This document shows positions 922 through 60,955 of a stretch of 64,000 nucleotides of DNA, in pieces. Position 1 is the stretch's first letter; each line of letters opens with the position of its first letter. Where the stretch lies: NCBI GenBank assembly GCA_965207225.1, contig CBDBLV010000004.1, positions 384,001 to 448,000 of the forward strand, read 5' to 3'. Source of the DNA: Dehalococcoidia bacterium (lineage in GTDB: Bacteria; Chloroflexota; Dehalococcoidia; Plut-88900). The notes beneath the pieces are model-generated. The model was given only the letters and a program-made list of their open reading frames with translations, had not been told where the DNA came from and searched no databases. Made by a program: the position numbers and the translations under genes.

Positions 922-1743
922 TCAGCCGACCCGCTGGGCCTTCTTGTAGGCCTCGACGATGGCGTTGATGAAAAGGCCTCGCAGGCCGCCCGACTCGAGG
1001 ACGAGGAGGGCCTCGGCGGTAGTGCCTCCAGGGGAGGTGACCATGTTCTTCAGTTCCGCCGGGTGTTTATCCGACTCTTTGTAAAGCTGGGCGGACCCCG
1101 CGACTGTCTCCACGGCGAGCTTTTCGGCGATGTCCCTGGAAAGGCCGACGTGTACGCCGGCGTCTATAAGGGACTCGATGACAAGAAAGGTGTAGGCGGG
1201 GCCGCCGCCGCTGAGGGCGGTGGCCATGTCGAGGTATTTTTCGTCTTCGACGTAGATCTCCTCGCCGAGGGCCTGGAGGATGCCGGCGGCGGCGGCACGG
1301 GCGTCGGGGCCTGCGCCAACGCCTGTGGTCCACATGGTTATTCCCTTCCCTATCTGGGCGGGGGTGTTAGGCATGGCGCGGACGAGTACGTCATGGCCGA
1401 GGCCGTTAGACAGAGTATCCAACTTCACTCCTGCGGCAATGGAAAGGACCATCTGGTCGCTTCCGACCCGGCCCTTCATCTGTTCGAGGACGTGGGGCAT
1501 GACCTGAGGTTTAACGGCCAGGACGACGGCTTCGGGGCCCTGGAGGGCGGCGAGGTTGTCGTCGGTGGTGGAGACGTTGTAAGTATCGGAGAGGGTGGAG
1601 CGTCGGGGTGCGATGGGTTCGCTGACTAGGATATCAGCAGGAGTGGCGACGCCCTGTTCGATAACGCCGCGCACAATGGCTTCCGCCATGACCCCGCCAC
1701 CGATGAATGAGAGTTTTATTTGGGGGCCTCCTCGCGCCGACAA
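922..1743 (-). CDS. proC: Pyrroline-5-carboxylate reductase (start may be ATA at 1719)
   Basis: FIGGGVMAEA, LAVKPQ, SIAAG, RAMPNT, ALSGGGPAY and VTSPGGTT motifs. Confidence 0.95.
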   Translation of the reverse strand: MSARGGPQIKLSFIGGGVMAEAIVRGVIEQGVATPADILVSEPIAPRRSTLSDTYNVSTTDDNLAALQGPEAVVLAVKPQVMPHVLEQMKGRVGSDQMVLSIAAGVKLDTLSNGLGHDVLVRAMPNTPAQIGKGITMWTTGVGAGPDARAAAAGILQALGEEIYVEDEKYLDMATALSGGGPAYTFLVIESLIDAGVHVGLSRDIAEKLAVETVAGSAQLYKESDKHPAELKNMVTSPGGTTAEALLVLESGGLRGLFINAIVEAYKKAQRVG

Positions 1744-1990
1744 GGCGAATGCAACGCTTGCCGGGACGGCAACTGTATACTAGATTATAGCACCCGCGCC
1801 TGTGGGACACGGGGAAAAGGACAAAAGAGTGGGCACCCTGGGGGGAGGTGGCGCCCAAGGGTGCCCGGAGGTGGTGTGCGCTGGGAGGAGCAGCGCACCG
1901 GGGTAACGGCAGTTGGGGGATAGCCCGATGGCTCGGGCCGTGTTCTGGGGGAGCACGCCCCCCGTCTGCCATTGCTTTGATATTAGGACG

Positions 1991-4393
1991 TTAGCCGCAT
2001 TTGTTGTACCCGCAGTCGTAGCAGGTCACGCATCCCTCCTGGTATACCAGGGTACCGTTGCACTCAGCGCACTTGCCTGAATAGGCGATTTTTCCATTTC
2101 CGTTGGTGTGGCCGTTTCCGTTCTTTTGAAGCTGGGGTAGAGGCACTTGCGCCCCGACAACGGACGGCGCCTCCGCACCGGGCCACTTTTCATGCTCCAT
2201 GAGATGCCGGGAGAGGACTAGGGCCACGGCGTCGGGGCCGGACTTGACGAGTTCACCCTCGTTCCAGGCGGGGCAGCAGGTTATGCCCCTCAACTGGTCG
2301 ATGACGTCCTGAGTCTCGATGCCCGAGCGCAGGGCCAGGGAGGCAAGTCTGGAAATGGCCTCCAACTGGGCAGAGTCGCAGCCTCCGGCCTTGCCGAGGT
2401 TGGAAAAGACCTCGAAGGGAGTCTTTTCTTCATCGAAGTTGACGGTGACGTACATGTTGCCGTGGCCTGTGTGGACCTTCTCGGTGATGCCCTGGACCTT
2501 GGAAGGCCTGCGCCTGGGGGTCGGGCCTGAGTGGGGAGCTTCGTCGCCTTCTCGGGCCTTCTGGGTCTGGCCGGTGTTCAACACCTGCTGACTCTTGCTG
2601 CCATCCCGGTAGATGGTCACGCCCTTGCAGCCTTCCCGGTAGGCCAGCATGTAGACCTGCCGGACATCTTCTATGGTGGCGTGGTTGGCGAAGTTGACGG
2701 TCTTGGAAACGGCGTTGTCGGTGTGCCTCTGGAAAGCGGCCTGCATCTTGACGTGCCACTGGGGGCTGATGTCGTGGGAGGTTACGAAGAGGTCCTGGAC
2801 CCACTGGGGGACCTCGTCGAGTCCCTGGGCTGTCCCAAGATCGGCCAGCTTCTCCATCAATTCCTGGCTGTAGAAGCCTTCGCGCCGGGCCACGGCTTCG
2901 AAGTAGGGGTTGACCTCGACCAGCCGGGCGTTGTCCATGACGTGCCTGACGTAGCTGAGGGCGAAGAGGGGCTCGATACCGCTGGAGCAGTTGGCGATGA
3001 TGCTGATGGTGCCCGTGGGGGCGATGGTGGTGCGGGTGGAGTTGCGCATGGGCCGGGGGCCAAGCTGTCCGCCTGGGCCGTAGACCGAGTCGTCCCAGTC
3101 CGGGAAGTTGCCCCGCTCGCCGGCGAGGGCCCCTGAGGCGTCGGTGGCCTTTTCGTCAATGAATCTCATGACCTTTTCGCCGAGGTCCAGAGCGGCCTGG
3201 GAGTTGTAGGGAATGCCCATGAGGATGAGCATGTCTGCCCATCCCATGACGCCCAGACCTATCCGCCGGATGCTGGTGGAGGTCTCGGCGATCTCGGGGA
3301 TGGGGTAGTTGTTCATGGTGACAACGTTGTCCAGGAAGCGGACGCAACTCTCGACCACTTCTCCCAACTCGTCCCAGTCAACGGCGGAGCTTTCGTCAGT
3401 TTCGAGAACAAACTTGGCGAGGTTTATGGAGCCCAAGTTGCAGGAGTCATAGGAGTAGAGGGGTTGCTCTCCGCAGGGGTTGGTGGCCTGGATCGGGCCT
3501 CGCTTGGGCACGGGGTTGGAGCGTTCGTCGTTCATCCGGTCGATGAAGATGATGCCCGGGTCTCCGGTCTTCCATGCGCTTTCGACCATCTCGTCGAATA
3601 GGGGCTTGGCCTCTATGGACTTCACTTTGACCTTGCTGTTGGGGTTGACGAGGTCGTGGGTACTGCCGTTTTCCACGGACTGCATGAACTTCTCGGTTAC
3701 GGCAACAGAGATGTTGAAGTTCTGGAGAGAGGCGTCGTCATCCTTGGAGTGTACGAACTTCAGGACGTCGGGGTGGCTGACGTCCAGGATGCCCATGTTG
3801 GCGCCGCGTCGGGTGCCGCCCTGCTTCACTACGTCGGTGGCGGTGTCGAAGATACGAATGAAGGAAACGGGGCCGCTGGCCACGCCGCCCGTGGACCCGA
3901 CCCTGTCGCTCTCGGGCCTGAGGTTTGAGAAGGCGAAGCCGGTGCCACCGCCGCTCTTGTGGATGACCGCGGTGTGCTTGGCAGCTTCGAAGATGCCGTC
4001 TATGGAGTCGGGGACAGCCAGTACGAAGCAAGCGGAAAGCTGCTGGAGTTCCCTACCGGCGTTCATTAACGTCGGTGAATTGGGCATGAACTCGTTGCGG
4101 GCCATGAGCTGGTAGAAACGCTCTGCCAGGAGCTCGACGTCCATGTCGGCGGCGCCGTATTCCTTTTCGCCCTCGGCAATGTTGCGTGCCACGCGTCGGT
4201 AGAGGTTTTCCGGGACCTCGGCGGGCTTGCCGTCGACATCCTTGACCAGGTACCTGCGTTCGAGTACGGCCATTCCGTTTTCCGATACCAGGGGTATCTG
4301 ATTGCCGAATTTTTCGGAGATTTCGCTGCTAAGGCCCTTGACCATCTGGGAGTGGACGGTTGACTGATTGGTGGTCTTCTTGCTCTGTACCAA
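1991..4393 (-). CDS. nrdJ: Class II (adenosylcobalamin-dependent) ribonucleotide reductase with C-terminal TSCPD domain and Zn ribbon
   Basis: PNSPTLMNAG, QLSAC, QGGTRRGANM, ATNPCGEQPL (catalytic NxCxE), CNLGS, TIAPTGTISI; C-terminal CAEC...CYDCGYNKCG. Confidence 0.93.
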   Translation of the reverse strand: MVQSKKTTNQSTVHSQMVKGLSSEISEKFGNQIPLVSENGMAVLERRYLVKDVDGKPAEVPENLYRRVARNIAEGEKEYGAADMDVELLAERFYQLMARNEFMPNSPTLMNAGRELQQLSACFVLAVPDSIDGIFEAAKHTAVIHKSGGGTGFAFSNLRPESDRVGSTGGVASGPVSFIRIFDTATDVVKQGGTRRGANMGILDVSHPDVLKFVHSKDDDASLQNFNISVAVTEKFMQSVENGSTHDLVNPNSKVKVKSIEAKPLFDEMVESAWKTGDPGIIFIDRMNDERSNPVPKRGPIQATNPCGEQPLYSYDSCNLGSINLAKFVLETDESSAVDWDELGEVVESCVRFLDNVVTMNNYPIPEIAETSTSIRRIGLGVMGWADMLILMGIPYNSQAALDLGEKVMRFIDEKATDASGALAGERGNFPDWDDSVYGPGGQLGPRPMRNSTRTTIAPTGTISIIANCSSGIEPLFALSYVRHVMDNARLVEVNPYFEAVARREGFYSQELMEKLADLGTAQGLDEVPQWVQDLFVTSHDISPQWHVKMQAAFQRHTDNAVSKTVNFANHATIEDVRQVYMLAYREGCKGVTIYRDGSKSQQVLNTGQTQKAREGDEAPHSGPTPRRRPSKVQGITEKVHTGHGNMYVTVNFDEEKTPFEVFSNLGKAGGCDSAQLEAISRLASLALRSGIETQDVIDQLRGITCCPAWNEGELVKSGPDAVALVLSRHLMEHEKWPGAEAPSVVGAQVPLPQLQKNGNGHTNGNGKIAYSGKCAECNGTLVYQEGCVTCYDCGYNKCG

Positions 4394-4487
4394 GGTTCGC
4401 TCGATTCTAGGTTTTGCAGATTGTGTCCGGGACTGATTAGAAATAATGCGGAACAGCTTGCCACGTATTCGCCGGCCCCCCGACCCT

Positions 4488-4682
4488 TCAGTCGGGGGCT
4501 GGATCAGGCCAGGGAATCTTGGTTACCAATCCCATCGATTCCAGCAGTTCGATATCGGCTTCCTCGGCCAGGCCTTTATCCATGGGGCGTTTCGGAAGGG
4601 AATCGTCCTTAGAGAGACGTTGGCCATTCCTGACGGTAACGACATAGTCATTTGCCGGAGTTTTGACCTTGTGCAGTTTCAT
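4488..4682 (-). CDS. Small hypothetical protein (64 aa) between nrdR and nrdJ
   Basis: Fills the gap between nrdR and nrdJ on the same strand, starting 11 bp after the nrdR stop; no recognisable family. Confidence 0.45.
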   Translation of the reverse strand: MKLHKVKTPANDYVVTVRNGQRLSKDDSLPKRPMDKGLAEEADIELLESMGLVTKIPWPDPAPD

Positions 4683-4693
4683 TTCAACTACGC

Positions 4694-5242
4694 CTAACGC
4701 CTTCCGGACTGCGTGCGCCCTTGGGCTGTTCGTGCGGTTTGTCGGGTGACTTCCAGGAACATCGGGAGCTGGGCTGATGGAGACTCTTCGCCGTCGGGGG
4801 AGCTGAGGAGGGAGTCAACCTCTTCTTTGAAGGTCTCCACGTCTTCGAAGTCGCGGTAGACGCTGGCGAAGCGGATGTAGGCCACGCGGTCCAGGTCCTT
4901 GAGTCGGGCCATGACCAACTCGCCAATGATGCCAGTCGGGACCTCGGCCCTGCCGAGCTTCTGGAGTTCTTCCTCGATCTCGTCGACCATTTTTTCAATG
5001 GCGCCGAGGGGCATGGGTCTCTTGGCGCAGGCCTTGTGGATGCCGGAGGCCAGCTTGGAGCGGTTGAAAAGCTCCCTACGCCCGTCTCCCTTGATGAGGG
5101 TCAGGACAGCACCTTGGATCCGCTCCAAGGTGGTGTAGCGCAGGTCACAACGGAGACACTGCCGCCGTCTCCGGACCGCACCTTCTACGGTCCTGGAATC
5201 GATGACCTTCGAATCTTCGAAGTCACAGAAGGGACAACGCAC
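4694..5242 (-). CDS. nrdR: Transcriptional repressor NrdR
   Basis: RCPFC...SKVIDSR...RRRRQCLRC Zn ribbon, ATP cone, DRVAYIRFASVYRDF. Start set at the GTG of VRCPFC. Confidence 0.96.
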   Translation of the reverse strand: MRCPFCDFEDSKVIDSRTVEGAVRRRRQCLRCDLRYTTLERIQGAVLTLIKGDGRRELFNRSKLASGIHKACAKRPMPLGAIEKMVDEIEEELQKLGRAEVPTGIIGELVMARLKDLDRVAYIRFASVYRDFEDVETFKEEVDSLLSSPDGEESPSAQLPMFLEVTRQTARTAQGRTQSGRR

Positions 5243-9418: not shown

Positions 9419-9495
9419 GGTGAGCGTAGCCTAGCGGTTAAGGCGCCAGGTTGTGGCCCTGGAGATCGAGGGTTCGAATCCCTTCGCTCACCCCA
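9419..9495 (+). tRNA. tRNA-His (GUG)
   Basis: Encoded G-1, acceptor stem GTGAGCG/CGCTCAC, anticodon arm CCAGG-TTGTGGC-CCTGG, T loop GTTCGAATC, encoded CCA. Confidence 0.96.
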
Positions 9496-9526
9496 TGCAC
9501 CTAACAACTACATCCATCGCAGACCT

Positions 9527-9602
9527 GCGCCTGTAGCTCAGTGGAAAGAGCATCGGTCTTCGGAACCGAGGGTCGGGGGTTCGAATCCCTTCAGGCGCGC
9601 CA
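9527..9602 (+). tRNA. tRNA-Arg (UCG)
   Basis: Acceptor stem GCGCCTG/CAGGCGC, anticodon arm TCGGT-CTTCGGA-ACCGA, T loop GTTCGAATC, encoded CCA. Confidence 0.95.
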
Positions 9603-18893: not shown

Positions 18894-19730
18894 TCATGCC
18901 GTCTTAGGAGGTGGGCCCGGGGCGCGGGGAGCCTCCGGCGTCTGGCGCAACAGCAGATAGGCGCCGACGACCGCTACTGCAATCAGGGTCAAGAGGGCGA
19001 TAACGTGGGCCTGCTGCAGGGAGCCTATCCTCGCGGGGTCGTCACGGGTGAACTGGACGAGGAACCGGATGGCGGAGTATCCGGCCAGGTAGATAAGCAT
19101 GACCATTCCGTCGGGCCTGACGCGACCCAGGAGTTTCATGATTACGAAGAAGAGCAGGACGTCGGCGACCATTTCGTAGGCGACGGACGGGTGATAGCCA
19201 AGCTCTGCGCCTGACGCCGACTGAGGCACGGCCGGTCTGCCGGTGTTCAGCCCCGGCCAGCTCGGGTGGGTGTGGACCCAGCCCCAGGGAAGGCTGGTGG
19301 TGGTGCTGAAATGCTCACCGTTGATGACATCGCCAACGCGGCCTATGGTCTGGGCCACGAGCATCATAGGGGCGGTGATGTCGGCGAGCTTGCCGACGGA
19401 CTGCTTGTTGAGTATGGCCCAGGCAACACCCGTGACCGTCCCGCCGAGGAGCGCCCCCCAGAGCCCGACACCACCGTTCCAGATGAAGAAGATGTCGGCG
19501 GGGTTGTTTCGGTAGAAGTGCCAGGCGTCGAAGACGTGGACCAGCCGGGCCCCGACCACTCCGCCGGGCACGGCCCAGGCAGCGCAGGAATAGACTACCT
19601 GCTGGTCCATGCCCCGATATCGGGCCAATCTTGCAGTGCCGAAAACGGCAAATGCCACGCCGATGGCGGTGAATATGCCGTGCCAGGAGAGTCCCCCTAC
19701 CAGGTAGGGGTCCATGCTGATTTCAAGCAT
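18894..19730 (-). CDS. lgt: Prolipoprotein diacylglyceryl transferase
   Basis: GARLVHV, IWNGG.G.WG, AQTIGRVGDVINGE, LPWG, HPSVAYE, RFLVQFTR. Confidence 0.88.
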   Translation of the reverse strand: MLEISMDPYLVGGLSWHGIFTAIGVAFAVFGTARLARYRGMDQQVVYSCAAWAVPGGVVGARLVHVFDAWHFYRNNPADIFFIWNGGVGLWGALLGGTVTGVAWAILNKQSVGKLADITAPMMLVAQTIGRVGDVINGEHFSTTTSLPWGWVHTHPSWPGLNTGRPAVPQSASGAELGYHPSVAYEMVADVLLFFVIMKLLGRVRPDGMVMLIYLAGYSAIRFLVQFTRDDPARIGSLQQAHVIALLTLIAVAVVGAYLLLRQTPEAPRAPGPPPKTA

Positions 19731-19762: not shown

Positions 19763-19792
19763 AGTTTAGATGCACCGAAGAATCGGGGTCAA
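19763..19792 (-). promoter_or_regulatory. Putative sigma70 promoter of lgt
   Basis: TTGACC-18 bp-TAAACT about 30 bp upstream of lgt. Confidence 0.5.
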
Positions 19793-19831
19793 TCCGGTGT
19801 ACTCGTCCGGTGGACTGGGGGCGCAGCGGAG

Positions 19832-20586
19832 CTTTGTTCAGTTGTGGGGTGTTGGGTTTGTCTGTTGGGTTTTTGGGTCGGCGATGGAAGACGCCCTCTT
19901 GCCCTCAAACTGGCTTGCACTCTTCATTACGGGTGTTCCGGCTGTTGGGGGACCTTTAGAGCAGGCCCCGCCTGAGAGGGAGGGACTTGCAGCCGGCCGT
20001 GCCTTTTTGCTCGATTGTATTCACGGACCGGTCCGGGTCAGGACGTCCGCCAGAGACTCCTCTTTGGGCCGTATGCGCCAATGGGCACGACGGGGCCAGT
20101 GATCCAGCTGTGGCCCCACAGCCTATCTAATGATGTCCATGTTTGCCGGAGCTCTCAGGAGCGAAGTCTCCGGCGCCCCCGCGCACATTGCGCATCCTTA
20201 GCAAGAGCAGACCTATTTGGAGACGATTCTCCTCCGGGGGCAAAGGGTCCGCTGCATACCTCCTAATTAGTCACCCCCGCTGCTAAACTCCGTTGTCGGG
20301 AGAGGGGTGGGAGTAGAAAGCCAGGGCGTCTTTCCATCGCCTGGGGGACAGGGAAGGGACACGGAACCCAGTGGGATGAGGAGATGGCGTCCCCGACTTC
20401 TCGGGGATGACGTATTCGCTTGTGCCGCAACCTTCCTGCCTCGCAAGGGGGGCGATTGGCCGGTCGCCCCTACAAGAGAGGGGAGAGGTCTTGGGATGGG
20501 CTAGGGCGTTGAGTCCTCGGTGTCGGGTCTCGGGGGCTTCCCTGGGTTTTTGGGTTCCTCCTTAAGGTGGTGTCGGGTCTAGACTT
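19832..20586 (-). ncRNA. Candidate novel structured non-coding element, copy A
   Basis: Shares three sequence blocks with 59227-59703. Inverted arms at 20324-20341 and 19880-19896 enclose a hairpin-rich 427 nt. Has its own promoter and no conserved ORF. Confidence 0.65.
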
Positions 20587-20592
20587 AGAACA

Positions 20593-20621
20593 AATATAAA
20601 GCTCAAACGTTTGCATGTCAA
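20593..20621 (-). promoter_or_regulatory. Sigma70-type promoter driving element A
   Basis: TTGACA-17 bp-TATATT on the minus strand, pointing into the element. Confidence 0.75.
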
Positions 20622-20668: not shown

Positions 20669-20971
20669 AACCCTCACCCCCTTGATCCCCCTCTCCCTTA
20701 GGGCCTTTAAGGGAGAGGGGGAAAGAAGAACAGAGGCAGACGTGGGTGCGTTGCACCCACGTCTGCCTCTAGTTCAATACTGGGGACAATGGGGGGAAAC
20801 TTCTGGTCCAGGCGGAGGTGAAGGATGCAGGAAAGGGGAGGAGACGCCGCCCGACCCAACGGGGAGAACCCTCACCCTCTTGATCCCCCTCTCCCTTAGG
20901 TCATTAAGGGAGGGGGGAGGAAAAAACAGAGGGAAGCGCCTGCGCCATGGCGCAGGCGCTTCCCTCTAGTT
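20669..20971 (+). repeat. Two copies of a ~105-bp double-hairpin module (20669-20774, 20867-20971)
   Basis: AACCCTCACC..TTGATCCCCCTCTCCCTTAG..TAAGGGAG.GGGGA..AACAGAGG[palindrome]CCTCTAGTT, present twice. Confidence 0.8.
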
Positions 20972-20999
20972 TGGCACTGGGGGATGGATGGAACCCCAT

Positions 21000-21310
21000 C
21001 CCAGATTCCTCGCGGGGCTTCGGAATGACAGGGGAGAAGGGGGTGCGACTTTTGCAGGGCTGACGAGGCCGATTGGCAAGGGGTGGGCCGCCCCCCGCTC
21101 ATACTTCGAGGGCCTCAGCATGAGCGGCCCCACCGCCCCGGGCGACCCGCCGGTCGCCCCTACACGGGGAAAGAGGACCCTTCTACACCACCAAGCAGGA
21201 TGGATTCCGGCTCGGGGCCGGGATGACGGAAAAGGGGGCGGGGATAGATCACCCTACTTCTTGTGGACGGGCCAGGGATGGGAAGGGGAGGGGGGGTGGG
21301 GATGACGGGA
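21000..21310. repeat. Cluster of REP-like palindromic intergenic repeats
   Basis: AGATTCCTCG..CGGAATGACA, CTTCGAGGGCCTCAGCATGAGCGG, GGCGACC..GGTCGCCCCTAC, TGGATTCC..GG.ATGACGG; reverse-complement copies at 58.2-59.1 kb. Confidence 0.75.
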
Positions 21311-59165: not shown

Positions 59166-59193
59166 TTGACATCTATGACAATCGTGCTAAACT
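59166..59193 (+). promoter_or_regulatory. Sigma70-type promoter driving element B
   Basis: TTGACA-16 bp-TAAACT with a TGn extension. Confidence 0.7.
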
Positions 59194-59199
59194 GTTTCG

Positions 59200-59703
59200 C
59201 AGTTCGAACTAATAATCTCGTTATCCAAGGAGGAACCAAAAACCCCAGGGAAGCCCCCGAGACGTCCGGGACGCCATCTCCTCACCTTCACGGATCCCGT
59301 GCCCCTTCCCTATCCATCCAGGCGATGGAAGGTCCACAACACTCTTACGGTGCACTCTCTTTGAAAGAGCATGCCGTCTGTGCGGATACCGCAAGAACCG
59401 CATCTACGCCACCGGCATTGACCTTGCCGGCGCGTCTGAAGGCCGCAACAGGCCTTGTTGGGAATCCCGTCCATAAGTCGGATTCCTCTGGCGTCTACCA
59501 CGACGACTCTGGCGGGCTTTGCCCGCTCTTTCGGTGGTTCAACCTCTATGGTGGACTGCCTGACCCGTTCACATACCCATAGACCCACCGAATATCCGCA
59601 GGGCAGGCATACCCGCCCCCTGAAAACCGAGTCCCGGACCTTCCATCGCCGACCCCCTCAAAAACAGACAAAACGAAACCCGAGACCCCACAACTCAATA
59701 AAG
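59200..59703 (+). ncRNA. Candidate novel structured non-coding element, copy B
   Basis: Same three conserved blocks as copy A. Perfect 15-bp inverted arms at 59321-59335 and 59636-59650 enclose 300 nt of successive hairpins. Confidence 0.65.
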
Positions 59704-59711
59704 GCCCCTCG

Positions 59712-59740
59712 TTGACAACCGACCCTCCAAAAAGCATACT
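59712..59740 (+). promoter_or_regulatory. Putative sigma70 promoter of the LLM-comDE operon
   Basis: TTGACA-17 bp-CATACT, 36 bp before the ATG at 59777. Confidence 0.6.
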
Positions 59741-59776: not shown

Positions 59777-60955
59777 ATGACGCTGCCCGCCCGCATGAGA
59801 TTCGGCATTTTCATGGCCCCCTTCCACTGGGCCGCCGAGAACCCGACCCTCTCCCTTGAGCGCGACATGGAGCTCCTCGAATGGCTCGACCAGCTGGGCT
59901 ATGACGAAGCCTGGATCGGCGAGCACCACAGTGGAGGTTGGGAAACCATCGCCTCCCCGGAGGTATTCATAGCCGCAGCGGCGCAGCGCACCAAGCACAT
60001 CAAGCTCGGGACCGGTGTCCTCAGCCTGCCCTACCACCACCCGCTTATGGTCGCCAACCGGATGATCCTGCTCGACCACATGACCCGAGGCCGTGTGATG
60101 ATGGGTGTCGGGCCCGGGGCCCTGGTCGGCGACGCCTTCATGCTCGGCATCGATCCGCCCCTCCAGCGCCAGCGCATGGACGAGGCCCTCAACATCATCC
60201 TGCGCCTCTGGACCGAGACCGAACCCATCACCTACGAAGCCGACTGGTTCACCCTCAAAGAGGCCACCGTTCACCTCCGCCCCTACACCCTCCCCCACAT
60301 CCCCATCGCCGTTGCCGCTTCTTACTCCCCGGCGGGAATGGTGTGCGCTGGGAAATACGGGCTTTCCGTGTTGTCGCTCAACACCATATCCGTCCCGGGC
60401 GCTGCCGCCCCCGATCTGGCCAAGTTCTGGGACATCGCCGAGGAGACCGCCGACAAGTACGGACAGACCGTCAGCCGGGACGACTGGGGCATCGTCATCC
60501 ACGTCCACCTCGCCGAGAGCCGCAAGGAGGCCATAGAGCAGGCCCGAGAAGCCTCAGGGCGGTACCAGAAGGAGTATTTCGAGGACACCCTTGGCCTCCC
60601 CAGGGCCTACGATGGCCCACAGGACAAGATCATCGACCACATGGTAGCAACCAACAACTGGTGTGTCGGCACCCCCGACGACCTGGTCGACACCATCCTC
60701 CGCCTCGAAGAGGAGTCTGGCGGCTTCGGCCGGCTCCTGATCCAGGCCACCGAGTGGGGAACCCGGGAGCAGGTCCTCCACAGCTACGAGCTCCTCGCCC
60801 GCTACGTCATGCCCCGCTTCCAGGGCTCAGTGACCAGCCTCCACGAGTCCCGGGAGTGGTCCGTAAAGAAGCGTGAAGAGCTCGTCGCCATGAATACCAA
60901 GGCCATGGACAAGGCCAAGGCCGACTACGTCAAGAGCGTAGCCTCGGGCCCCTAG
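59777..60955 (+). CDS. LLM-class flavin-dependent monooxygenase (limonene monooxygenase-like subgroup)
   Basis: FGIFMAPFH, GYDEAWIGEHHSGGWE.IASPE, LPYHHP, LDHMTRGR..GVGPGAL. Confidence 0.9.
   Translation: MTLPARMRFGIFMAPFHWAAENPTLSLERDMELLEWLDQLGYDEAWIGEHHSGGWETIASPEVFIAAAAQRTKHIKLGTGVLSLPYHHPLMVANRMILLDHMTRGRVMMGVGPGALVGDAFMLGIDPPLQRQRMDEALNIILRLWTETEPITYEADWFTLKEATVHLRPYTLPHIPIAVAASYSPAGMVCAGKYGLSVLSLNTISVPGAAAPDLAKFWDIAEETADKYGQTVSRDDWGIVIHVHLAESRKEAIEQAREASGRYQKEYFEDTLGLPRAYDGPQDKIIDHMVATNNWCVGTPDDLVDTILRLEEESGGFGRLLIQATEWGTREQVLHSYELLARYVMPRFQGSVTSLHESREWSVKKREELVAMNTKAMDKAKADYVKSVASGP

Follow-up and report, generated by a model that had tools for sequence, protein, structure and literature searches.

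BOX of Streptococcus pneumoniae, Correia of Neisseria, ERIC and REP/BIME are modular intergenic repeats which form folded RNA and may contain promoters. OLE, GOLLD, ROOL, HEARO and raiA are large orphan bacterial ncRNAs, all of them in Rfam, and to our knowledge no large bacterial ncRNA class has ~40 copies per genome. Correia, ERIC and REPIN sequences have been named as promoter-bearing mobile elements (PMC3575422). Putative mobile promoters were defined as stretches of 50 nt or more that are 80% or more identical and lie between -150 and -50 of unrelated genes, and most families of this kind are pairs (Matus-Garcia, Nijveen and van Passel 2012; PMC3575422). STAB-SD of Bacillus thuringiensis cry3A is an SD-like 5' sequence that stabilises the mRNA (PMC4113751).

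In a 64,000-nt stretch of a Dehalococcoidia genome, here called the window, copy A (minus strand, 19832-20621) and copy B (plus strand, 59166-59703) share the same ordered blocks, as the initial annotation had pointed out. Both are members of a genus-wide family of ~40 modular non-coding transcription units per genome, and the host group is one uncultured Dehalococcoidia lineage of marine and sponge-associated bacteria. The element had been described as two-copy; a profile search of the whole genome instead returned 41 block-2 matches, 40 with block 3 within 1200 nt and the remaining one with a block 3 found by BLAST, giving 41 copies in the window's own genome. Dozens of copies were found in each of the other species of the genus (8/8). 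A covariance model of the structure (R1) had matches in 5/5 congeners and in 0/145 other genomes of the class, and three weak BLAST matches in other families contained no element block by profile search. The units are 0.35-0.8 kb long, and an estimate from these lengths places ~23 kb of the 4.03 Mb genome (~0.6%) within them. No description of this ~40-copy element family was found in the literature.

Like BOX, Correia, ERIC and REP, the units are dispersed, intergenic, numerous, modular and restricted to a narrow taxon; they lie near promoters of unrelated genes and would be strongly base-paired if transcribed. They differ in being five to ten times longer, in that each full unit has its own complete near-consensus 5' promoter, in their many long interchangeable interiors, each with a conserved fold, and in showing neither terminal inverted repeats (copy A) nor positional differences between two species. 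With OLE, GOLLD, ROOL, HEARO and raiA they share a length of 0.4-0.8 kb, elaborate folding, lack of coding capacity and narrow lineages; those RNAs, however, have one or few copies and one fold, whereas here ~40 copies present many folds on one frame. The predicted promoter-driven structured RNA, bounded by a long-range inverted repeat, resembles retron msr/msd (a1/a2), although no reverse transcriptase lies beside any copy, the copies number ~40 and the interiors are far longer than msd. In Rfam searches the whole window gave only two tRNAs, copies A and B gave chance-level matches at E up to 10, and 14 loci with other interior types gave none, in agreement with the earlier remark that no known family was recognised. 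OLE, GOLLD, ROOL, HEARO, raiA, group II intron and retron-type RNAs were rejected because no covariance model matched at its gathering score.

As with putative mobile promoters (PMC3575422), closely similar non-coding DNA without an Rfam match lies upstream of unrelated genes, but here the shared unit is a whole predicted promoter-plus-RNA gene of defined architecture in ~40 copies. Tails and post-tail sequences align between unrelated loci, an alignment which is not a measure of identity in the -150 to -50 window itself. As in STAB-SD, an SD-like sequence that does not start translation lies near the inferred 5' end and an RNase J gene is present (PMC4113751). Here, in contrast, it heads a predicted non-coding RNA and not an mRNA leader, the host belongs to the Chloroflexota and is not a Firmicute, and 30S binding and stabilisation are only putative.

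Each unit consists of a promoter, an SD-like box without a start codon, a 5' domain, a long-range helix around the interior, and a tail (Table 1). The sigma70-type promoter sequences first reported for copies A and B are present, and 3 (A) and 2 (B) promoter-like sites were found against ~0.2 expected from shuffles. Promoter P1 scores at least 9/12 in 38/40 copies and at least 10/12 in 28/40, and always lies 30-39 nt 5' of block 1. It occurs in three unrelated versions (17, 12 and 9 copies) which combine freely with the interior types; version b is upstream of 12/40 copies, and version c precedes block 1 by a constant distance in 9/40. Block 1 is the most conserved block of the unit. Its AAGGAGG lies 30-39 nt downstream of the -10 hexamer in 38/40 copies, near the putative transcription start, and no start codon (ATG, GTG or TTG) stands at the proper distance behind it. 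The 5' domain measures 85-258 nt in 38 copies (109 nt as a whole in copy B), with inserts nested inside one hairpin loop, and is closed by helix P1 (AGGGAAG/CUUCCCU), which is kept in 12/12 short forms. The tail is unstructured; the 40 tails have a mean C content of 41% and a mean G content of 11%, and a tail profile gave 39 matches inside elements and one outside. Within 200 nt after the tail an intrinsic terminator-like site is present in only 6/40 copies. In 9/40 copies a promoter-like site follows 40-45 nt after the tail, and as the surrounding sequence can be aligned between unrelated loci, this promoter-like P2 may be a module of the element. The view that the next gene's own promoter follows both copies therefore needs qualification: the promoter-like sites are there (19792-19763 and 59712-59740), but they may belong to the element.

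Table 1. Positions of the parts of copies A and B and of their downstream genes within the window.
Copy	Feature	Positions	Strand	Remarks
A	Promoter P1, version c, TTGACA-17-TATATT	20593..20621	-	11/12 matches
A	Block 1	20527..20563	-	SD-like AAGGAGG 20563-20557, A-rich run, AGGGAAG 20543-20537
A	AGGGAAG	20543-20537	-	5' strand of helix P1
A	Remaining 5' domain, nested hairpin inserts	20342..20526	-	Helix P1 3' strand CTTCCCT 20356-20350
A	Closing helix, 5' arm	20318..20341	-	In MFE fold
A	Interior, type 8 in this genome	19917..20317	-	Singleton here
A	Closing helix, 3' arm	19880..19916	-	In MFE fold
A	C/A-rich, G-poor tail	19832..19879	-	
A	Promoter-like P2 before lgt, TTGACC-18-TAAACT	19763..19792	-	
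A	lgt, downstream gene, outside element	18894..19730	-	Pfam LGT, E 1e-49
B	Promoter P1, version b, TTGACA-16-TG-TAAACT	59166..59193	+	10/12 with TG
B	Block 1	59227..59263	+	AAGGAGG 59227-59233; AGGGAAG 59247-59253
B	Short 5' domain, one small hairpin	59264..59320	+	CTTCCCT 59305-59311
B	Closing helix, 5' arm GGCGATGGAAGGTCC	59321..59335	+	
B	Interior, type 4	59336..59635	+	
B	Closing helix, 3' arm GGACCTTCCATCGCC	59636..59650	+	
B	C/A-rich tail	59651..59703	+	
B	Promoter-like P2 before luciferase-like oxidoreductase gene, TTGACA-17-CATACT	59712..59740	+	10/12
B	Luciferase-like oxidoreductase gene, downstream, outside element	59777..60952	+	Pfam Bac_luciferase, E 2.5e-48

The long-range stem proposed for copy A was recovered: the arm 20341-20324 is complementary to 19896-19880, pairing of 20323-20318 with 19916-19911 lengthens the stem, one A is bulged, and the closing helix is also part of the MFE fold of this copy. 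In copy B the arms form 15 perfect pairs (59321-59335 with 59636-59650), and almost every copy retains the 5'-arm core GGCGATGGA. The arms are complementary in other copies too, with covariation between interior types; extensions of the closing helix form stronger pairing with their own partner than with partners from other types (-14.5 vs -10.6 kcal/mol, p 3.7e-10). Within one type the covariation is thin. In the type-0 alignment (21 sequences) 99% of 1633 cells are paired and the 11 doubly changed cells were reached by 0/500 shuffles, but only 2/78 pairs are changed on both sides, a count reached by 54/500 shuffles. The fold of copy B (z -5.38) was equalled by 0/100 shuffles, and copy A taken alone (z -1.21, 20 shuffles) was no better than shuffles.

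Ten interior types were distinguished in this genome and 14 clusters over all loci gathered. The interiors of A and B bear no similarity to each other, as had been seen by eye, but they are not unique to these copies, and relatives of both types are found in congeners. The type of copy B has one paralogue in this genome at 95% and copies in the species G008 and G007. The type of copy A is single here and present in 7/8 other species, with copies 88-94% identical at other loci in G005, G007, G002 and G006 and weaker matches in further congeners.

The units sit at fixed loci upstream of unrelated housekeeping genes, and the 14 downstream genes checked fall into 14 unrelated Pfam families. By a crude longest-ORF rule the next gene is co-directional in 31/39 cases and convergent in 8/39. 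A riboswitch or gene-specific leader was rejected on account of these unrelated families and convergent genes. All copies checked in the sister species G008 (19/19) have a downstream flank in common with a copy here, and the upstream flank is broken in 7/19 of the pairs. The interior type is kept in 10/19 orthologous pairs and different in 9/19, and the most similar interior often belongs to a non-orthologous copy, with identity of up to 98%. At the lgt locus four different interiors are found in five species. Promoter-like P2 before lgt is kept in six species, including G007, where the body is absent and a tail remnant and P2 remain; this remnant makes the site look like a deletion. The proposed constant frame with an exchangeable interior is borne out, and the combination of fixed loci with differing interiors indicates that modules were exchanged by recombination. 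Most simply, the promoter version, the 5' inserts and the interior were swapped via the conserved blocks through homologous recombination or gene conversion.

How such units might work can be suggested from composition and from the presence of RNase J and Rho genes in the genome. The units would be stand-alone genes for an abundant, long-lived structured RNA, a proposal to which we give somewhat less than an even chance. A 30S subunit on the SD-like box might shield the 5' end from RNase J in a STAB-SD-like manner, and the closed compact body would confer nuclease resistance. Rho may load on the C-rich, G-poor tail, so that the transcript would end before the promoter of the neighbour. The interior would be the working part of the RNA, which would explain why each type keeps its sequence and fold across species. 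The identity as a modular unit family and this proposed working together form the best explanation, held with evenly balanced confidence.

Several observations are explained equally well, or better, by a role in cis: the co-directional next genes (31/39) and the downstream synteny (19/19), the broken upstream flanks (7/19) together with the irrelevance of interior type to locus, and the scarce intrinsic terminators. The unit would then be a cis-acting expression cassette in which transcription from P1 continues across a structured leader, resistant to nucleases, and on into the next gene, with the tail as a Rho-dependent attenuator and an outward-facing P2 as part of the unit in some copies. 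As a joint account this is unlikely. It would accommodate the retention of the unit where its interior was swapped (9/19 pairs), the terminator-like sites in only 6/40 copies, the P2-like sites of 9/40 copies with their alignable surroundings, and the species with only a tail remnant and P2 before lgt. The 8/39 convergent next genes speak against it, as do the 14 unrelated downstream families, which imply no shared regulon. Moreover, a spacer would not need interiors kept in sequence and fold across species, and the lgt promoter has its own spacing in all six species, one of which lacks the body.

A further reading is a combinatorial RNA gene system, in which a constant promoter-plus-scaffold frame, ~40 fixed docking sites and at least 14 interchangeable conserved folded domains are reshuffled. 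Recombination would then change which domain is expressed at which site as well as the dosage. The domains would be working parts, for instance protein- or nucleic-acid-binding modules that serve as scaffolds or as decoys where phages abound, in the sponge habitat. Taken as a whole this is doubtful; if true, it would correspond at the RNA level to cassette systems such as integrons or the silent and expressed pilin loci.

Whether the units are mobile bears on another alternative. The initial annotation had considered a non-autonomous mobile unit and a retron-like template, with co-occurring HUH or RT genes as a test. A currently mobile unit, a HUH-driven unit and a retron-like template are not supported, whereas the folded, non-coding modular family is. 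All 19 G008 copies lie at loci which are occupied here, and copy A has no terminal inverted repeats; its only inverted repeats of at least 12 nt are two hairpins upstream of the promoter (the closing helix escaped this search because of its bulge). On these grounds a MITE/TIR transposon was rejected. An IS200/IS605-type non-autonomous element was dismissed as well, with no match to PF01797 (Y1 HUH transposase) in the 92% complete genome. Four reverse-transcriptase genes are present in the genome, the nearest ~16 kb from any copy. At copy C1:38443 the N-terminus of the next frame resembles a transposase which we take to be of IS481 type; IS481-like spread was rejected in view of the missing terminal inverted repeats at copy A and the absence of positional differences in 19 loci.

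A selfish or neutral dispersed DNA repeat, either MITE-like or a BOX/Correia-like mosaic kept uniform by gene conversion, would explain the family in another way, with hairpins whose importance, if any, would lie in the DNA itself and with incidental promoters. The mosaic, module-by-module build and the confinement to one genus agree with this, and an IS21 insertion interrupts one copy with no evident effect. Most copies also have REP-like palindromes and hairpins within 600 nt on their upstream side, repeats over which metagenome contig depth is 1000-5000 and contigs from four runs break at the repeats. We nevertheless regard it as improbable. Besides the missing terminal inverted repeats at copy A and the 0 positional differences between two species over 19 loci, the 3 kb flanks contain no adjacent transposase family. 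The three unrelated promoter versions keep near-consensus hexamers at equal spacing, and the folding beyond composition is strand-specific.

This strand specificity also bears on the direction of the RNA. In 39/40 copies the opposite strand, which is G-rich, has the lower raw folding energy, and on that strand the block-1 region forms a terminator-like hairpin with a T-run in both copies (20529-20546 on the plus strand, 59263-59242 on the minus strand). The functional RNA might accordingly begin on the far side of the tail and terminate at the block-1 hairpin and T5. Relative to dinucleotide shuffles, however, the z-score is lower on the sense strand in 10/10 type representatives (mean -5.6 vs -2.3), which upholds the earlier choice of strand and the view of the units as non-coding and strongly folding. 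The conserved promoters point the other way, the block-1 hairpin is reduced to three pairs in forms with a short 5' domain, and such terminator-like sites are no commoner than in shuffles (2 vs 1.8; 1 vs 0.8). An RNA from the opposite strand is very unlikely. G-U asymmetry on pairs common to both strands amounts to 5 vs 3 cells.

No reading frame is conserved consistently within any interior type; from a shared ATG the frame runs from 6 to 88 aa within one type. Two open frames had no match in Pfam or PHROG, a tblastx search of the genome with 10 interior representatives gave, outside the copies, short weak matches only, and blastn of copy A and one type-2 copy against 50,697 phage records gave none. 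A phage or terminase origin was rejected on the two DNA queries and two frames, and a hok-like type I toxin mRNA on the lack of a conserved small hydrophobic frame within interior types. That some interiors encode small proteins, for instance the 85-aa frame of copy B from the ATG of GGCGATGGA, is hardly credible: in 3/4 copies at 95-100% identity the frame runs on for 83-85 aa, but it is 66 aa in the fourth and shifted to 31 aa in 4/4 copies of the 89% subtype (broken in 5/8 relatives altogether), its ATG lies inside the closing helix without a preceding Shine-Dalgarno sequence, the shared ATG gives just 6 aa in several type-0 copies, and Pfam and PHROG hold no match.

The RNA biology of Chloroflexota is almost unstudied. 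If the units are transcribed as predicted, ~0.6% of the genome would encode about 40 large structured RNAs, each under its own promoter, and would offer a range of naturally occurring RNA folds built on a common frame. They would also be a clear case of module exchange among dispersed non-coding genes at fixed loci, and might connect ribosome-binding 5' caps and Rho loading sites with how housekeeping genes are expressed. If the family is merely a repeat, it would still be a useful recombination marker in uncultured symbionts and a warning for intergenic annotation.

Copies A and B belong to an element family that recurs across the window's genome (4.03 Mb in five contigs, 92% complete, 8% contamination). 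The initial annotation had described a two-copy element, but iterated nhmmer profiles of the three blocks, used to count the copies, matched 42, 41, and 40 places in this genome. A BLAST search with copy A against the same genome gave 86 matching pieces. Block 3 lies within 1200 nt of block 2 in 40 block-2 matches, 39 of which also have block 1, and at the 41st match block 3 was seen by BLAST. The remainder of the original description fared better. When both regions were read and then aligned, copies A and B were found to have the proposed ordered architecture and unrelated interiors; the arms of copy A were complementary as claimed, and the scan scores bore out a sigma70-type promoter heading each copy (about 0.2 promoter-like sites of such quality expected in shuffles). 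The copy A query matched 8/8 other species of the genus and 0/3 other genera of the family; three weak BLAST matches elsewhere were not confirmed by the block profiles. Similarly, a covariance model of the short 5′ domain (alignment A3, model R1) matched 5/5 sampled congeners, each carrying at least about 20 copies by this model, and 0/145 other genomes of the class, spanning 110 genera. Sequencing runs containing the window's stretch include sponge and marine metagenomes (DNA). Separately, five further sites may be more distantly related to the family. Two of them, missed by the block profiles, combine the CCAGGCGATGGAAGG motif with a fitting 3′ arm some 450 nt further on; the other three, outside the counted copies, match interior types 0 and 9 weakly.

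Positions of the features discussed (window coordinates, or contigs C1-C5 of the window's genome, G000)
Feature	Position	Strand	Detail
Copy A promoter, TTGACA-17-TATATT	20621-20593	minus	promoter scan, 11/12
Copy B promoter, TTGACA-16-TAAACT, TG upstream	59166-59193	plus	promoter scan, 10/12
Copy A block 1 (AAGGAGG, A-run, AGGGAAG...)	20563-20527	minus
Copy B block 1 (AAGGAGG, A-run, AGGGAAG...)	59227-59263	plus
Copy A arms	20341-20318 with 19916-19880	minus	one bulged A
Copy B arms	59321-59335 with 59636-59650	plus	15 perfect pairs
CCGG-N9-CCGG hairpin	19790-19815
Terminator-like hairpin, copy A block 1	20529-20546	plus	7-9 bp, then T5
Terminator-like hairpin, copy B block 1	59263-59242	minus	7-9 bp, then T5
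Repeat upstream of copy A	20680-21100		G-rich motifs
Perfect 18-bp hairpin with T-run in this repeat	20732-20770
15-bp palindrome in this repeat	20686-20722
Two tandem tRNA genes	9420-9599		Rfam
IS21-type insertion	G000:C1:67043-69676		locus L019, 1630-3130
RT gene	G000:C2:158087-158773
RT gene	G000:C5:1548409-1549095
RT gene	G000:C5:1553608-1554405
RT gene	G000:C5:1671488-1672288
Possible distant relative	G000:C2:179534		CCAGGCGATGGAAGG motif
Possible distant relative	G000:C5:1190353		CCAGGCGATGGAAGG motif
Possible distant relative	G000:C5:1617378-1617583		interior match
Possible distant relative	G000:C4:456597-456876		interior match
Possible distant relative	G000:C1:234421-234646		interior match

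A promoter scoring at least 9/12 is found 30-39 nt upstream of block 1 in 38/40 copies. It exists in three versions that do not align with each other: a (TTGACA-17-TATCAT, 17 copies), b (TTGACT-16-TG-TAAACT, 12 copies), and c (TTGACA-17-TATATT, 9 copies). Of the two copies without it, one has a partial block 1 only. The other, upstream of a uvrA-like gene, is split within its 5′ domain by an IS21-type insertion (an IstB-like ATPase, E 7e-58, and an adjoining Mu-transposase C-terminal domain), with promoter and block 1 on one side and the remainder on the other; the orthologous copy in G008, the closest species compared, is intact. The 5′ domain spans 85-258 nt (38 copies). Its minimal form consists of AAGGAGG, an A-run, helix P1 (AGGGAAG/CTTCCCT), and one hairpin, in whose loop the extra hairpins of longer forms are nested. 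Directly 3′ of this domain the closing helix encloses the interior, followed by a tail averaging 41% C and 11% G, whose profile gave 39 matches within elements and one elsewhere. The 40 interiors of the window's genome fall into ten types (13, 10, 5, 2, 2, 2, 2, 2, 1, and 1 copies), and 78 distinct segments from the loci collected across the sampled congeners, one of them a reverse-strand artefact, form 14 clusters. Promoter versions and interior types are freely combined; among type 0 copies, seven have version a, two version b, and four version c.

Comparison of orthologous loci revealed that units hold fixed places and that modules move between them. For 19 copies from G008 (Lgt 98% identical), the downstream flank maps beside a copy in the window's genome in 19/19, and the upstream flank is non-syntenic in 7/19. 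The interior type is common to 10/19 pairs (80-92% identity) and the interiors are unrelated in the other nine (23-51%). Moreover, what a G008 interior matches best in the window's genome is often not its orthologue but another copy, up to 98% identical. The copy A interior, single in its own genome, recurs at other loci in 7/8 other species. At lgt, downstream of copy A, the unit is present in 5/6 species, with four different interiors and differing promoter versions. In the sixth, G007, this locus (L044) is without promoter, 5′ domain, and interior and retains a tail remnant, with the lgt promoter immediately following a terminator hairpin, as if the unit body had been deleted. Judging from the sequences, the simplest explanation for module swaps would be exchange through the conserved blocks, by homologous recombination or by gene conversion.

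The initial annotation recognized no known RNA family, and indeed Rfam gave nothing above chance level for copies A and B at E up to 10, and no match to 14 loci with other interior types; two tandem tRNA genes were the sole matches in the whole window. For type 0, RNAalifold on 21 sequences from several species (alignment A4) predicted 78 pairs, with 99% of 1633 cells paired and frequent replacement of G-C by G-U. Both sides are altered in two pairs (11 cells in total); 0/500 shuffles reach the cell count or covariation score and 54/500 reach the pair count. Covariation within the type thus lends some, if thin, support to the fold. When types are compared, the closing helix's inner extension varies as a unit (GGUCC/GGACC versus GACGCC.../...GGCGUC, and further variants), and its duplexes are more stable with their own partner than across types (-14.5 versus -10.6 kcal/mol, p 3.7e-10; 56 distinct own pairs versus 2840 cross pairs, copies not independent). 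Excess folding is strand-biased. In 39/40 copies the opposite, G-rich strand has the lower raw MFE; a G-U asymmetry count on pairs common to both strands gave 5 versus 3 cells, favouring neither strand. By contrast, z-scores against dinucleotide shuffles are lower on the sense strand in 10/10 type representatives (means -5.6 versus -2.3; 14 shuffles each). Copy B scores -5.38 on the sense strand (0/100 shuffles as good) versus -1.52, and copy A -1.21 versus +0.18 (20 shuffles). Together, z-scores and promoters favour the strand originally chosen.

The units could also be cis-acting promoter-leader cassettes serving the downstream gene, which is considered rather unlikely. With the longest ORF taken as a crude guide, 31/39 next genes run in the direction of the unit and 8/39 are convergent. 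Pfam assigned 14 downstream genes to unrelated families: peptidase S58, amidohydrolase 2, catalase-peroxidase, peptide deformylase, MmgE/PrpD, a Rieske protein, MoaA, FolD, AdoMet decarboxylase, NusA, LeuRS, RibF, Lgt, and a luciferase-like oxidoreductase. An intrinsic terminator-like site lies within 200 nt past the tail in only 6/40 copies. The initial annotation had assigned the promoter behind copies A and B to the next gene. A promoter-like site of at least 9/12 follows the tail in 12/40 copies, in nine of them at 40-45 nt. This region aligns across unrelated loci, and a short CCGG-N9-CCGG hairpin abuts the -35 hexamer in the window and at the same place in about nine other copies. Since the promoter-like site recurs at a fixed distance in alignable sequence, in this subset it may instead be a 3′ module of the unit. 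A separate, far commoner repeat family lies upstream of copy A; metagenome contig depth over it is 1000-5000 versus 13-60 on neighbouring genes, and similar pieces occur within 600 nt 5′ of most element copies and 3′ of some.

It is improbable that the family is a repeat without RNA function. BOX, Correia, and ERIC, intergenic repeats of modular build that take on an RNA fold and can contain promoters, are the nearest known kinds to the unit. The "putative mobile promoters" of PMC3575422, which names Correia and ERIC, are also close. Orphan large ncRNAs are alike in size and fold, although no covariance model matches the unit, and a literature search for the family found no published description. 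Suggestions of a mobile unit or of HUH or retron-like links were not supported: no terminal inverted repeats flank copy A, 3 kb flanks of the copies hold no recurrent transposase family, the window's genome (92% complete) has 0 Y1 HUH matches, and none of its four RT genes adjoins a copy. Two of these genes, scoring identically, lie within frames of 586 aa; the frames around the other two are 641 and 652 aa long. All four may represent copies of a group II intron or some other retroelement. Nor do the results support an IS481-like or a terminase-derived reading for this genome.

Opposite-strand RNA and small-protein readings jointly share the small remaining probability. Block 1 yields a terminator-like hairpin when the opposite strand is read; such hairpins are not enriched over shuffles, and this one is weaker in short 5′-domain forms. 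The units are non-coding. Frames read from the ATG within GGCGATGGA differ inside one interior type, with lengths of 6 to 88 aa, and the longest stop-to-stop frames switch strand and phase among copies of one type. The 85-aa frame of copy B has 83-85 aa in its two other closest relatives, 66 aa in a third, and only 31 aa in 4/4 copies of an 89% subtype. Two frames had no match in Pfam and PHROGs, and tblastx with one representative per interior type found no protein-level relative in the window's genome.

The odds are judged close to even that each unit specifies a stable, stand-alone RNA with the interior as its working part. Transcription would start from promoter P1, and the start-less Shine-Dalgarno box would play a STAB-SD-like role, a mechanism described in PMC4113751; Rho would load on the C-rich, G-poor tail. 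Genes for RNase J and Rho are both present in the window's genome.
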